58,351 nucleotides of DNA from Deferribacterales bacterium (GTDB lineage Bacteria; Chrysiogenota; Deferribacteres; Deferribacterales; Geovibrionaceae). Made by a program: the position numbers. Position 1 is the stretch's first letter; each line of letters begins with the position of its first letter. Of this stretch, positions 18,301-27,300 are shown piece after piece. The DNA is taken from positions 1 through 58,351 of the forward strand of contig JBFWJG010000008.1 of assembly GCA_050253335.1 (NCBI GenBank), in the 5' to 3' direction.

Positions 18301-21300
18301 GTAAGGAACAGCGCGTTCGACCATGGCGAGGGTGGCTCTCACATCCTGCATTCTGGCGGCCTGAGCTTCGATATCTTTCCATATTCCGAGGCCTTCAAGC
18401 GCCTTCTGGGTGTATTTTCCTGCGGGGACATGCTCAGGGTCGCCCATTGCGAATCTTCCGCTGCCGATGAGTTTTTTCACTGCGGCTCCGTCAAGATTTG
18501 ATATCTTCTCTGTTTTTGAGGAGACAGGGGCGATAAATGCGAGCTTGTTCGCGAGGTAGGGAATGTTTGTCCCTGCCTCTATTTTGCCTTTTTCAAGCAG
18601 ATAATCCATCCAGCTCATGTTCGCGGAGATAAAAATGTCCGCGGGAGCGCCGTTTTCGATCTGTTTCGCAAGGGGGCCGGAGGATGCGTAGGAGGCGATT
18701 ACATTAACGCCCTTTTCCTTTTTGTAAGCGGCGATAATTTCTTCCATAGCGTTTGTTACGGAAGCCGCGCCGAAGACAGTGACATCTTTAGCGAAGGCTG
18801 AAACACTGATAAATAAACATAATACAATAATAAGCGTTCTCATAAGCTTTACCTCTTTGGAGTCGTTATGTAGGAATGTATATAGCGATTCGCGGTTCAA
18901 GTCAATGTTTTTGATTTGCCTGGCTTATAGCCAGTGTAAAAAAATGTAATGGGTATTGAAAATATTAAAACATATGTGCATAGTTATAGTTTCGCATAGG
19001 TGATTGAATGAGAGCAGTGATTGACATCAACAGACACAAAGGTCTTTACATAATTTTTCTGGCGATGATAGGCGCCACTCCGCCTCTGGCCACTGACATG
19101 TATCTGGCGGCGATTCCCGTCATAGCCGATGAGTGGAACGTGGGGGAGCATCTGGTGAATCTTTCCCTTGTGCTTTGGTTTGCGAGCTTCAGCACATCTC
19201 TCCTTTTTTACGGCCCCCTTTCGGATAAGTTCGGCAGACGCCCGGTTCTTCTCGGCGGTTTGTTTATGTTCGTGCTCTCCTCCGTTTTGTGCACTCTGAG
19301 CGCGAATGTCTGGCAGCTTATAGGCTTCCGCATTTTGCAGGGAGCGGGCGCGGCCGCGCCTTCCGCCATGGTTATGGCGATATGCAGGGACAAATACTCG
19401 GGAGAGGAGCGCAGAAAGGCGCTTGCGTATCTGGGAACTGTTCTGGCTGTCGCGCCTATGGTGGCGCCTATGATCGGGGCTTTTCTTCTCAGTCTGGGTT
19501 CATGGAGATACATTTTCCTCACTCAGGCTGCTATGGTGGCATGCACATTCGCTGTTTCGTTCCTTTTTCAGGAAACAATTCAGGAAAGGTTCAGCGGGGC
19601 GTGGTACAAAGTGTTTTTCAGATACCGCAATGTGTTCTCCAACCGTAAGTTTATGCGTACAAACCTTACTCTGAGCGTTTCGGCGGGACCGCTTTACGGG
19701 TTCATTGCCTTTTCTCCCATATACTACATAGGCATAAACGGCTTTTCAGAGGCTAAGTTCAGCTTTCTCTTCGCGTTCAATGCATTCGGCGCCATGTTCG
19801 GAGCTTTTGTCTGCTCAAGGCTTCTGAAATACTTTAACCCGAATACGCTCATAACCTTTTGTCTGGGGGGCACTCTGTTTGCCGCCTGCGGTCTGTGGCT
19901 TCTGAGCTTTTCCGCATGGTACTTCTTCACCTGCTTCACATTCCTTACCACTTTCTTCATCTGCATGAACAGACCCCTGAGCAACAACCTCATAGTTGAG
20001 CAGGTGAGCACGGACATAGGTTCCGCCTCGTCATTCATGGTTTTCACACAGCTTATGTTCGGCGCACTGTGCATGTTCGCTGTTTCCGGCACACACGCCC
20101 ACAGGCTTGCGGTGTTTAACCTGCTGTTTGCCTCTGTTGCGGTTTTTGTGATGATAAACTGGATTTTCCTGAGAAAGCGCCTGTCCTGAAGGGTTTTAAT
20201 CAGCTTTCGAACTCGGCGGTTATTCTTTTTTCCTCCTCCGGAGTGAGGAGGATCGGCGGCATGAGTGAATCTGGCTTTATTTTTCTGGGATTTTTAATCC
20301 ATTTAATCAGTATTTCCCTGTTCCATCTTCCGCCTTCCGCCTTTACGGCATCCGCGGGGTAATATTCGCTGAACAGTCCGGAAAGGTTCGGTGCGGTGTT
20401 CCCATGCCCTGTACCGCCACTTTTGCGGGTAAGCAGTCTGTGGCATCCGCCGCATTTTTCATCGAAAGCGCTCTTTTTCCCCTGAGTTATGAAGACAACA
20501 TAAGGGGCTGTTCCCGAAACCTTTTTTGCGCTTCCGCCCGCATTAAGGATGTACCTGACGGAATCTTCGGCGGTTTTGTCGTTCATGCGGAAATCAGGCA
20601 TGTAGTCCGTGGGTTTCATCAGCTTGTCTTTCAGTGTTTCTGCGGTTTTGCGTCTGCTTTCGGTATCAAGGTCAGGGGCAATGTCATTACCCTTGCCCCC
20701 AATGATGTGGCATCTTCTGCAATGGGCGTTTTCTATGGTTTTTCCGCCGCCGGAGACAGCCTGACGGTTTATGATGAAGTCAGCGTATTTCTTTGTTATC
20801 AGCCCGCTGTGGGCTATGTTTTTCCTGCTTGTTTCACTGTTTCCCCTGTGGCAGACAGTGCATGAGCCTGTTTTCTCATAATGGGGCTTGTGGCACTTCA
20901 CGCACATGGACGCAAAGGCGGGGAAAGCAGGAAGGCTGAGAAAAATCAGAAGTAAAAGGGCACGAGCGACCAATTCTCACCTCTGAAAAACATTGCAACT
21001 GCCGTGAGCACAAGAACAGCCGCGCACAGAAACAGCGTGAACCCCCAGACGGGAGCATCTTTTTTCGCAAACCAGACGGCTGTTTCCGGCTGATATTTCC
21101 TGCGGAAATCAGGCAGAAAGAAATACAGGATAAACAGCACCGCAAAAGGATTGAACAGCCATGCCTTCCAGCTTACTATCTCCTGAATCCACAGCAGGAA
21201 CCACGCGCTTTTCGCGGGGTTCGGGGGGAGCGCCGGATCTGCCGGTTCCTCAAGGGGTGCGCCTGAGACAACTGCCAGCACAGCAGGCAGCGCCGCTGCC

Positions 21301-24300: not shown

Positions 24301-27300
24301 GCGTGCGCGCGTGGGTGTGGAAGCTTATTCTGCCGAAAAGAAGCCTGAACTCGCCTTCCGCCGGAACGGGGTTTTCCTCGTATGACGGCATGGGGGGGTA
24401 TGAAAAATGCTCGGCAAGGTTGCTGTAAAACTCGGCTTTGCCTGAAGGAGTTCTGAAAGAGGGTTCCTCTTCGTAGTCCTCCACAGGGTAGGGGGAGCTT
24501 TCGTTGCCTATGAATATGCCGTTTTTCTTCATATATTCCTCGTCAACGCCGAGGGATTCGAATGCCTGTCTGTTGTACTCGCTTATGTCCATGAACTTGT
24601 TTTCATAGCCCATGGTTTCAAGGAGTCTGCTTACCATATCCCAGCTTCCGAGAGTTTCAAAAACGGGATCGACAGCCTTTTCCCTGTACTGCACAAAACC
24701 CGCTCTGCGCCCTGTGGTGATCACAGGCTCAGTGCGCTCAAGGTAGGTGGATTCGGGAAGAATAACGTCGGAGTACCATGCGGTGTCCGTCATGTAGATT
24801 TCGCATGTTACTATCAGTTCAGTGTTTTCTATAGCTTTTCTGACAGTGTCTGTATTCCCGTGGTGGTGCAGCGGGTTGCAGCCGTATATAAACATTCCTT
24901 TAAGCGGGGAGGACTGTTCGGCTATGGCCTTGATTGTTCCGTTGGAAAAACCGAGGTTTTTGGGCCCGAGGGGGAAGTTCTCTCCGCCTGCGCCGTCTGC
25001 TCTGTCTGCGTAGGGTTTATCATACTCAATCATTGAAGGCGCATCGTATTTGAAGCCTATGGTACGGTAAAGACCGCCCCTTACCTCCCAGTTGCCCAGA
25101 AGCATGTTGAGACATGCCACAATTCTGGTGAACTGAGTGTCGTTTCCGTATCTGGTGAGCCTTCTGCCCGGGTGGACATAAGAGCGCGGAGCCGCTTTGC
25201 AGAGCTTTTCCGCAGCCTTTATGATCTCTTCCTGCGGGATTTCGGTTATCTGCGAGGCCCACTCAACTGTGTAGCCCGCCACATGCTTTCTGAACTGTTC
25301 AAAGCCGTAAGTGTAGCTGTCCACAAAGTCTTTGTTATAGATCTCTTTTTCTATTATGTAGTTAATCATGCCGAGAAGCAGAGCGGAGTCTGTTCCGGGT
25401 TTAATCATCATGTACTGGTTGGCCTTCGCCGCTGTTTTTGTGAAGCGGGGGTCAACATAGATTACGTGCGCGCCCTTTGCGACACCTTCCACAAAGTCCT
25501 GCATTTCGCCCACATGAAGCGCCTCGACTATGTTCCTGCCGAGCAGCATCATGCATTTTGAGTTCTGTGAGTCGACAGGCTCTTTGCCGCCCACAGGCTT
25601 TCCGAAGGAGAGCGCCCAGCCGATGTCGCGGCTGCCGGTACACTGTGAATATGAGGGCACGCATATGTTGGGTGAACCCATTATTTCCATCATCTGGATA
25701 AACGGATCCTGTCCTGAACCGTGGCAGAAAAGGCTGAAAGTTTCGGGGCCGTACTTTTCTTTAAGTTCGTTTGTTTTCTGTGCGACATAGGCTATGGCTT
25801 CTTCCCATGTGGCTTTTCTGAATTTGCCTGAGCCTCTTTCCCCGTCTCTGATCAGCGGGGTTTTAAGCCTGTCCGGATCATAGAGCTGAAAAACGCCTGC
25901 GTTCCCTTTCGCGCAGAGCTTGCCGTAGTTGCTGGGGCAGTCGGGCTGACCTTCCAGTTTTCTCACTTTTCCGTTGACCACTTTGGCTGTAAGCCCGCAT
26001 TTCCAGAAGCACATTTCGCACCAGTTCTGTGCGTATGTCACTCCCTGCTGGGGTTCCGCAACTGCGGATGAACCGCCGGTGAGCAGACGGAAAGATGACA
26101 TGGACGCTAATGCCGCGCCCACTGAAGCCGTTCCCTGAATAAAACGTCTCCGGGAGATTCTGCATTTTGTCATGGATTCCCTCGTTTTGAAGTTTATATG
26201 CGAATTAACGCATGTTTGAACTTTAAATAAACATTAACTGTAGATTAGTTCCGTGAGTAAAAAGTGTCAATAAAAAGTGACAAAAAAATCACTATTGGCG
26301 CGGGTGATAGGTGAGATTTGATGAACCTATCAATTGCTTCTATATTTCGTGTTTTAACAAAATAATTGACTCTCCTATATATATAATATATAGAAATTGC
26401 ATGGCATTGAGAGATCTTAACGACAAAGAACTTGAAGAAGTACTGGGAATATTCAAAGCGCTTTCCAATCCTGTGCGCCTGCGCATAGCCAAAATGGTGT
26501 GTGAAAGACCCAGATACGGGTATGAGATCGAAGAAGCCTTCGACTGTGAAAGAACCAACATTACAAAGCATATTAATCTGATGAAGGACGCCGGACTGCT
26601 GAAAGCGTACAAAGAAGGGAGAAAAACACTTTTTGTTCTCCAGACCGGCTACATTAAGAACAGCCTTCTTGGATGCGTTGACCACGACAAGCTGATTGAA
26701 AACTCAAAAGCTTAGTGATTTTATAGGTTTTTTTACAGACTGAGGTATTTCTTTTTTCTATAGGGCTGCATCTTTTTCAGCACTGAAATAGCATCCAAAA
26801 TCCGTCCTCCTCCGATCATCCTTTCTGTTCCCGATTTTACAGGGCATTTCGCATCACATCGGCTGAAAAGTTTTCTGTATCCTGATTCCGGTCTGCATCT
26901 TTTTTTTGTCCGTTTTATCAGTCCCATATGAAATATTAGTGAAAAAATAATCACACACGTGTTGACGCCCGCCGAAACAGCCGTATATACTTGTTTATGT
27001 TTATTCGGAGGTGTTTTATGAAGAAGGTTTTAGTTGCCGCCGCCGCTCTCTCGGCGCTGCTCCTGAGCTTCACGGCATATGCCGCGGCTCCTGAGAATCT
27101 GGCCAAGGTGCGGGATGCAAAACTCGCGGAGGCAAGAAAGGCGATTACCGAGGTTTCCCCTGCTGAGGTGGCGGAAATGGCGGCGAAAGGCGAGTCTTTT
27201 GTGATTCTGGATATCAGAGAGGCAGACGAGCAGGGGATGGTTATTGCTCAGGGAACACTCAAAAAAATCCCCAGAGGGCTTCTTGAATGGGTGGCGGCAG

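Follow-up and report, generated by a model that had tools for sequence, protein, structure and literature searches.

A Psr-type molybdoenzyme at the ext sulfur-respiration locus of a Deferribacterales bacterium

The ext system known from Geobacter sulfurreducens is present in this genome in a variant form, and what is new in it is a Psr molybdoenzyme as the proposed catalytic head. In G. sulfurreducens the genes extHIJKLMNOPQS (GSU2940-GSU2930) occur together with MccSep, and the products of the MNOPQS part are known as Cbc6 (PMC5877670, PMC2825233, PMC13510729, bioRxiv 10.1101/2021.04.15.440034). Here we find homologues of ExtH, I, J, M, N, O, P, Q and S, with the G. sulfurreducens gene order retained inside each half of the cluster, but no ExtKL or MccSep; instead, psrABC lies 5' of extO, the cluster is in two parts, and ExtP and ExtQ are fused with loss of the heme ci cysteine. 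From sequence comparison we consider it fairly probable that the ext locus encodes a sulfur-respiration module of three parts, one of them an exchangeable catalytic head. Its delivery part would consist of the rhodanese ExtH, the porin ExtI and ExtJ, its quinone-linked electron part of ExtMN and ExtOPQS, and its head would be MccSep in G. sulfurreducens and PsrABC in this genome, the latter most probably a periplasmic enzyme that reduces polysulfide to sulfide. Sulfur respiration in Geobacter-like bacteria was assigned to MccSep only recently; the electron donor of this polysulfide reductase was stated to be open, as was the way by which polysulfide reaches the periplasm (PMC13510729). Two unrelated enzymes that replace each other naturally at the same locus provide a pointer to the roles of the other nine ext genes. 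A literature search, with subscription papers mostly outside its reach, returned no account of a Psr inside an ext cluster.

The window, i.e. the whole stretch of 58,351 nucleotides that was analysed (contig JBFWJG010000008.1), carries six open reading frames in the order psrA-psrB-psrC-extO-extPQ-extS, all on the minus strand. The first three intergenic gaps measure 13, 9 and 62 bases, and overlaps of 4 and 28 bases follow; this agrees with the co-oriented arrangement that the preliminary description had reported. The molybdopterin catalytic subunit PsrA (23972..26173, 733 aa, Pfam Molybdopterin) has a Tat-like signal (SRRRFIQ), the iron-sulfur motif C52xxCxxxC, and the residues His151, Cys178 and Arg337, the cysteine being the Mo ligand. 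Its best solved relative is chain A of 2VPW (E 3e-150), of which His145, Cys173 and Arg332 align with these three residues. Although the PDB names this Thermus protein 'thiosulfate reductase', we take it to be a Psr structure, and the His and Arg beside its Mo site are presumably the catalytic residues. PsrB (23380..23958, 192 aa) is a four-cluster iron-sulfur subunit with four Cys groups that matches chain B of 2VPW (E 7.9e-47), and PsrC (22447..23370, 307 aa) is an NrfD-family membrane anchor (PF03916, E 5.7e-35) with eight hydrophobic stretches by hydropathy, for which a PDB sequence search gave no match. Divergently from psrA, on the plus strand, an ArsR/SmtB-family gene (26311..26715) is found at the same place in five relatives and, judging by this position, likely encodes the regulator of the psr genes. 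It is followed on the plus strand by a gene for a secreted, single-domain, Sud-like rhodanese (26991..27503; PF00581; 1QXN, E 6.5e-13), which adjoins psrA in four of these relatives as well and likely serves as a polysulfide carrier. Like 2VPW and the Wolinella succinogenes Psr with its Sud protein, the present enzyme thus combines the A-B-C gene order, the Cys ligand with its His and Arg, a four-cluster B subunit, an NrfD anchor and a Sud-like rhodanese nearby. It differs from them in that a Rieske/cytochrome b/cytochrome c set follows, which relatives tie to extHIJMN, and in that its substrate is putative.

The first gene of this set (21968..22384) encodes a Rieske protein of 138 aa (CTHLGC...CPCHGSIF; PF00355, E 6.6e-14), the only one found in the genome. 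It corresponds to ExtO in the naming of PMC5877670; the NCBIfam model called 'ExtO' matches the decaheme ExtN and not this protein. The fused ExtPQ (20946..21971, 341 aa) joins a cytochrome b6-like and a subunit-IV-like part and is matched by both NCBIfam models (ExtP 9e-51, ExtQ 4.5e-33), each below its cut-off. ExtS (20200..20973, 257 aa) is a four-heme cytochrome c (NF040971 over cut-off, E 2.3e-79) with two class I-like domains and invariant Met125 and Met238; its fold matches are weak, all above E 0.001 with E 0.012 as the best. The remaining ext genes, extH-I-J-M-N, are on contig C31, where ExtH reaches 1.3e-35 (below cut-off) and ExtI, ExtJ, ExtM and ExtN score above theirs. These family figures reproduce those given earlier for ExtS, ExtP, ExtQ and ExtH, and the spacing of only 104 bases between extJ and extM confirms that no gene lies between them. 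The two halves are separate in all four genomes of the genus. Because neither half is near a contig end and their flanks are unrelated, and because they are some 530 kb apart in the single-contig genome G029, the split is real and not an artefact of assembly. Outside the genus, psr lies at most about 20 kb from extM or extN in 13 of 14 carriers, the fourteenth being G040. A cysteine ends all 35 ExtH and all 19 ExtJ sequences; the predicted structure of ExtJ is poor (pTM 0.39, best fold match Z 2.5). A check for a porin-cytochrome conduit showed that the gene beside extI encodes a rhodanese lipoprotein, and the word 'conduit', as used previously, is too strong, since the published extHIJKL cluster is without an outer-membrane cytochrome (PMC6148476).

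That MccSep is missing had been asserted from gene order and is now supported by direct searches. The MccSep family model NF040886 matches nothing in this genome, which is 99.94% complete, and nothing over its cut-off in any of the 68 genomes of the phylum; the same model matched 40 of 121 genomes in a sample of the class that holds Geomonas; a real MccSep used as protein query also found nothing in this genome. As for divergent forms of MccSep, the best hits in the phylum (E 7.8e-14 in G003, E 3.2e-10 in G002) are pentaheme proteins that are unlinked and score far below cut-off; we rejected them, as by eye neither has a Cys or Sec at the corresponding motif. Loss of selenocysteine can be ruled out as the cause of the exchange because 13 of the 18 carriers of this PsrA have selA; in the genus itself SelA was found in none of the four genomes, as described before.

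This PsrA, defined by an identity of 47% or more, occurs in 18 of the 68 genomes of the phylum, the same count as reported previously. All 18 have extS, and in 17 of them psrA and the Rieske gene are on one contig within 12 kb. In 11 further genomes ext is paired with another molybdoenzyme, and 34 of the 68 are without extS. The proposal that a Psr-family enzyme stands in ext clusters without MccSep is borne out, both in the phylum and within the Geobacter/Desulfuromonas class, but its extension to the whole order Deferribacterales fails. Furthermore, psrABC directly follows extJ, in the slot of extKL, in only five of the 18 genomes; there are four different positions among them, and in the present genus psrABC goes with extOPQS and not with extHIJMN. 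The two gene sets tend to be absent together, as eight ext-less congeners are also without this PsrA, and G019 and G022 retain remnants of extM/extS but have neither psrA nor extO. Any Rieske protein at all is found in 31 genomes, of which 29 have an ext-tied PsrA/PhsA-like enzyme. Two genomes (G066 and G067, 96% complete) carry ext genes with neither catalytic head found, and a search for extI in G019, G022, G066 and two further genomes, weak by itself, gave no match anywhere. The closest named relatives of PsrA outside the phylum are proteins of Sulfurospirillum and Hippea (40-42%). A second Psr-like cluster of this genome is broken off at the end of contig C111.

Our main evidence for an exchange comes from the evenly drawn sample of 121 genomes mentioned above. 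A Psr-type enzyme is present in 21 of the 22 genomes with extS but no MccSep, 18 times within 30 kb of extS, against 4 of 40 genomes with MccSep, all of which have extS, and 12 of 59 without extS. This sample replaces an earlier set of 50 genomes, which was hand-picked from 80 of 229 loci (both enzymes 6, MccSep only 24, Psr only 19, neither 1). Fisher tests give p values of 1e-7 to 1e-11 but ignore kinship, and since kin are not independent we do not rely on them. On the tree of ExtM, which was used for the collection scan in place of the too variably aligning ExtS, MccSep status changes only six times, and the four independent pairs are too few for significance. Wherever the slot before extM is empty, MccSep is found elsewhere in the genome (13/13), and in six loci extJ lies immediately 5' of the head, whichever head this is. 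In G160 and G192 an anchorless TorD-PsrA-PsrB leads directly into extO-P-Q-S, and a search of G192 for an NrfD gene found none; anchorless enzymes also occur apart from ext in three genomes, and in G002, which is without extM or extS. The ext-linked molybdoenzymes do not form a single clade (AU p 4.7e-10) but at least five at the ext locus, which means that recruitment was repeated, with few independent events, about five. The enzymes of family f7 and of G003 are missing the Psr histidine. A molybdoenzyme beside L102/L104 was not counted as a slot enzyme on account of its divergent orientation and, by eye, its NADH-dehydrogenase-like neighbours. Taken at the level of sequence, the pattern suggests that delivery and electron transfer form a common platform on which the catalytic part can be exchanged. 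Surveys that use MccSep as a marker would overlook 22 of the 62 ext-bearing genomes of this sample, in which no MccSep was found.

So how would the parts work together? Polysulfide may enter via ExtI, be carried either by the cysteines at the C termini of ExtH and ExtJ or by the Sud-like rhodanese, and finally be cleaved at the Mo site of PsrA. Electrons would here pass mainly from the quinol pool through PsrC to PsrB. ExtOPQS and ExtMN would be linked to the enzyme through a common quinone pool; a more direct coupling would exist only in those relatives where PsrAB is anchorless. The previous suggestion that Psr is a terminal reductase fed by the Ext cytochromes is weakened by the presence of PsrC as a quinol anchor of its own, and by a Rieske/ExtS branch that looks high-potential: the S-F signature of the Rieske protein (91 of 92 sequences) points to a potential of about +260 mV, versus -270 mV for polysulfide, and the ExtS hemes appear to be of His/Met type. 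ExtPQ resembles b6-type Rieske/cytochrome b complexes in its Rieske partner's motifs and in its four heme-ligating histidines (His75, His89, His174 and His189, retained in 85-86 of 86 sequences), and its best solved match is cytochrome b6. It differs in its Psr-family partner and in a secondary fusion of subunits, which coincides with loss of the heme ci cysteine: replaced by Met in this genome, this residue is missing in 13/13 fused forms and retained in 13/13 intact split forms of the phylum and 58/59 outside. At what we take to be the Qo position, placed by the subunit IV motif, all 81 sequences caught by the pattern have SAWF (as here) or AAWF instead of PEWY/PDWY. Neither of the two words occurs in the main text of PMC4122944. 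A precedent for linkage of a Rieske/cytochrome b pair to a Mo enzyme is the haloarchaeal Rieske/cytb-Nar cluster (PMC3509893). A further-reaching model, which we put forward tentatively, would see Ext as a general platform on which sulfane sulfur is respired and whose head was replaced on five or more occasions. Having a non-acidic Qo motif, ExtOPQS would then be an unconventional Rieske/cytochrome b complex that gives the head low-potential electrons by reversed or bifurcated flow, replaces the NrfD anchor in some genomes, and thus is the electron donor system of MccSep, with ExtH and ExtJ as SoxY-like sulfur carriers.

We must however take into account that the two gene sets may be merely co-regulated neighbours. 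PsrABC, being self-contained, would then have made MccSep dispensable and settled next to ext, while ExtOPQS/ExtMN would be a chain of their own that oxidises quinol, delivers the electrons to acceptors of high potential (Fe(III), nitrate, oxygen) and has no functional connection to Psr. The complete anchor PsrC and the four positions of psrABC are in line with this, as are ExtO being the only Rieske protein of a genome with two COX1-family genes, and the reported iron-responsiveness of ext genes (PMC5877670). So would be the GC-rich hairpin of 11 pairs with a T run between psrC and extO (22409..22436, minus strand), which is terminator-like or RNA-stabilising and present in 11/11 loci where psrC directly precedes extO. 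Hairpins of this kind, however, also come after MccSep (30 of 37 loci), extI (21/43), extJ (10/16), extO (21/62) and extM (16/79), and so the one after psrC does not discriminate as a sign of Psr independence. With, in addition, the joint loss of extO and psrA, the at least five enzyme clades at the same locus and the anchorless PsrAB running straight into extOPQS, we regard mere neighbourhood as unlikely and prefer the exchange of the head within one module.

If the head was indeed exchanged, its substrate here could still be selenite, thiosulfate or tetrathionate. PsrA, PhsA and SrrA belong to one lineage with three substrates (PMC7331816), MccSep reduces selenite too, and mutation of extI impairs the reduction of both selenite and tellurite (PMC13510729, PMC5877670). 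Moreover, the carriers include Denitrovibrio acetiphilus and Seleniivibrio woodruffii, which have PsrA orthologues but are not counted among the sulfur reducers, and Deferribacter autotrophicus reduces sulfur without a close homologue of one D. desulfuricans Psr (PMC6896113), which we infer to be this Psr. Against these, the closest solved relative is 2VPW and the anchor is of NrfD type; PsrA keeps the Psr active-site residues and has the Sud-like rhodanese beside it, and for this reason polysulfide appears the likeliest substrate and another one rather improbable. Oxidation of sulfide to polysulfide, with menaquinone reduced by Psr and the quinol re-oxidised by ExtOPQS towards high-potential acceptors, would fit the thermodynamics of the predicted Rieske potential and the His/Met-type ExtS hemes, the linkage to extOPQS in this genus and the reverse action suggested for Psr copies of other bacteria (PMC6896113), but it is quite doubtful given that MccSep, whose gene was replaced, is required for sulfur reduction in vivo (PMC13510729), and the two directions are not exclusive.

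RNA contigs from four runs of one compost study, uninformative as contigs on level, strand and read-through, include scattered pieces on psrABC, the arsR gene and the rhodanese gene, and one in extPQ/extS. One gene downstream of extS, the minus strand carries a molybdate transporter, modABC (16312..18900; NCBIfam over cut-off for all three), which occupies the same place only in G027, G028 and G029, and which we describe as a neighbour and do not claim as a member of the system.

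The six minus-strand genes running from 26173 to 20200 encode, in order, PsrA (733 aa, from 26173), PsrB (192 aa, matching chain B of 2VPW), the NrfD-family PsrC (307 aa), the Rieske protein ExtO in the sense of PMC5877670 (138 aa), a fused ExtP-ExtQ cytochrome b (341 aa) and the four-heme cytochrome c ExtS (257 aa, to 20200). The best solved relative of PsrA is 2VPW chain A (E 3e-150), with whose His145, Cys173 and Arg332 its His151, Cys178 and Arg337 align. Genes for an ArsR-family regulator and for a secreted rhodanese lie divergently from psrA, the rhodanese being a relative of 1QXN, the Wolinella Sud protein (E 6.5e-13); modABC lies one gene downstream of the run. 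The genes extH-I-J-M-N are on another contig, C31, where the gap between extJ and extM is 104 bases and, as previously described, holds no gene. The observation of psrABC with Rieske protein, ExtPQ and ExtS but without MccSep is real and stronger than first claimed, and the exchange extends beyond the phylum: ext is an already known cluster whose catalytic head can be exchanged. That PsrABC functionally replaces MccSep, with polysulfide as substrate, we consider likely. Both ext and the phylum's Psr genes have been published before; no description of their linkage, or of an exchange with MccSep, was found in the passages of the literature searched, including PMC13510729, PMC4122944, PMC5877670, PMC6896113, PMC2825233, bioRxiv 10.1101/2021.04.15.440034, PMC7331816, PMC3509893, PMC11896075, PMC6148476, PMC11976967 and PMC6682613.

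The absence of MccSep from this genome (99.94% complete) is now confirmed by a direct search with its family profile NF040886, which gave no match, and by a survey of the 18 proteins with at least three heme motifs, none of which carries five such motifs or the MccSep motif. Since a read-through MccSep scored at E 2.2e-189 the model works, and no protein exceeded its cut-off in any of the 68 phylum genomes; a text supplement to PMC13510729, which describes MccSep, contains none of six terms for this phylum. The reported lack of selA in this genus also stands (4/4 genomes), and selA is present in 13 of the 18 genomes with the window-type PsrA.

ExtM and ExtS each occur in 34 of the 68 genomes, and the earlier count of 18 for the window-type PsrA was reproduced, ExtS being present in all 18. 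Their gene maps fall into four arrangements: psrABC is flanked by extN (or extM) and extO in seven, directly follows extJ in five and is upstream of extM in two that lack extHIJ; in the remaining four, the single-contig G029 among them, the cluster is split as it is here. Among the other 16 ExtS genomes, 11 (family f7) carry a different, 840-aa molybdoenzyme before extO-P-Q-S, with FdnH-like and, in 5/6 maps, also FdnI-like partners; its close clade (≥65%) is present in those 11 genomes and no others, and it adjoins ext genes in 10. In G003, extHIJMNOPQS is accompanied by rhodaneses and by a convergently oriented PhsA-like enzyme that has no anchor, two genomes (G019, G022) hold ext remnants without extO and psrA, and in two others (G066, G067), whose ext genes are on 5-kb contigs, no head was found. 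Between extM and psrA no extN was called at L050 and L076, where the other cluster genes are intact. Six genomes encode after psrC a secreted protein of 110-130 aa (L052:15631-15966, L047:8940-9329 and relatives) without an NCBIfam match, which is absent from the window and in two (G024, G025) ends in EGC, like ExtH and ExtJ. At L058:15295-19998 (G040), a repeat-bearing lipoprotein of at least 1568 aa, two regions of which are rhodaneses of the ExtH type, is encoded divergently from extO.

Outside the phylum, the best 80 of 229 ExtM relatives have MccSep at 38 loci, a molybdoenzyme at 17, both at one and neither at 26. In whole-genome searches of a hand-picked subset, MccSep was present in 1/16 genomes whose ext locus carries a Psr-type enzyme, and elsewhere in 13/13 whose slot is empty. 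To remove hand selection, 121 genomes were sampled evenly from the class to which Geomonas belongs; extS occurs in 62 of them, MccSep in 40 (all with extS) and a PsrA-like enzyme (E <1e-100) in 37, absences in this sample meaning 'not found'. The PsrA-like enzyme was found in 21 of the 22 extS genomes without MccSep, within 17 kb of extS in 15, at 22-30 kb in three and on other contigs in three, the exception (G129) having an extS fragment only and no extM; it was found in 4/40 MccSep genomes and 12/59 without extS. MccSep status shifts six times on a 64-row ExtM tree, which yields just four independent pairs; a sign test on these cannot reach significance, so the pattern rests on a handful of events. 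A Psr-family enzyme is at the locus in four of the six MccSep-less groups. Ext-linked molybdoenzymes form at least five separate groups on trees, most beside unlinked enzymes, and a single clade was rejected (AU p 4.7e-10, on a quick tree of 21 selected rows). One locus (L188) has both heads in one cluster, an extI-like gene and extJ-MccSep followed by extJ-psrABC, each with its own extJ. At six loci (L102, L104, L119, L123, L128, L135), ExtM and ExtN are fused into a 19-heme protein behind a TauE-family gene.

ExtJ directly precedes MccSep even where the latter has relocated (L180, L181), and directly precedes psrA or torD-psrA in five phylum genomes and at L185, L186, L188 and L190. All ExtH (35/35) and ExtJ (19/19) sequences end in cysteine, mostly Gly-Cys (here GSGC and LQGC), presumably resembling the SoxY carrier arm. 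A sulfur-delivery role for ExtH-I-J would fit this position and terminal residue, a question that PMC13510729 leaves open in its Discussion. DUF3373 proteins, possibly alternative porins, take the place of ExtI before extJ-MccSep or Psr clusters at L180:5819-9533, L181:3898-7550, L118, L163 and L193.

Several points speak against sulfur as the substrate. PsrA, PhsA and SrrA form one lineage according to PMC7331816. Named PsrA orthologues include those of Denitrovibrio acetiphilus and Seleniivibrio woodruffii, not counted as sulfur reducers in PMC6896113, and also that of Deferribacter desulfuricans, a sulfur reducer. The enzymes of the 11 f7 genomes and of G003 lack the Psr histidine and may act on another substrate. 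This genome also holds a second Psr-like cluster (C111:1-4826), encoding a TorD-like chaperone, proteins of 113 and 667 aa, the latter resembling proteins annotated as DUF3373 at related loci, and the first part of a molybdoenzyme that the end of the contig truncates. An NrfD anchor is present in the related clusters of G017, G023, G029 and G006, with a rhodanese as well in G023 and G029; for sulfur reduction in a relative, PMC11896075 appears to propose a cluster like the second one here, the match being our inference.

The electron side is the weak step of our reading. The ExtO complex is not a housekeeping complex III, since a Rieske protein is present in just 31/68 genomes and is always ExtO (a second in three). 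A forward path from quinol through Rieske and ExtS to Psr would run uphill, given a Rieske potential of about +260 mV, as read from its S-F signature (91/92 sequences) following PMC4122944, against -270 mV for polysulfide (PMC6682613), and the two invariant methionines of ExtS. Direct feeding of Psr by the Ext cytochromes is possible but rather doubtful. The Qo motif, its position inferred, reads SAWF or AAWF in 81/81 sequences and lacks the acidic residue; PMC4122944 associates reversed flow with another non-acidic motif, APWY, that accompanies Rieske proteins of this sort, for ExtOPQS an analogy only. An anchorless TorD-PsrA-PsrB leads directly into extO-P-Q-S in G160 and G192 (NrfD was not found in G192), a hint that a Psr can be served by ExtOPQS. 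However, anchorless enzymes also occur away from ext (G092, G095, G110) and in G002, which has no ext, and the enzyme in the window comes with a PsrC. Fused forms of cytochrome b make up one clade of 13 (support 100/99), all missing the heme ci cysteine. NCBIfam NF040968 (FeS_ExtO, 416 positions) looks misnamed: the decaheme ExtN reaches 503 bits with it, whereas the Rieske protein is not matched. Elsewhere in this genome, C24:4206-5549 encodes a HemN-like radical SAM protein (PRK08629, E 7e-146), a candidate menaquinone methyltransferase that would matter for low-potential respiration, C66:528-3641 a 28-heme cytochrome of 1037 aa, and C64:4236-8783 a group of 13-, 8- and 7-heme cytochromes.
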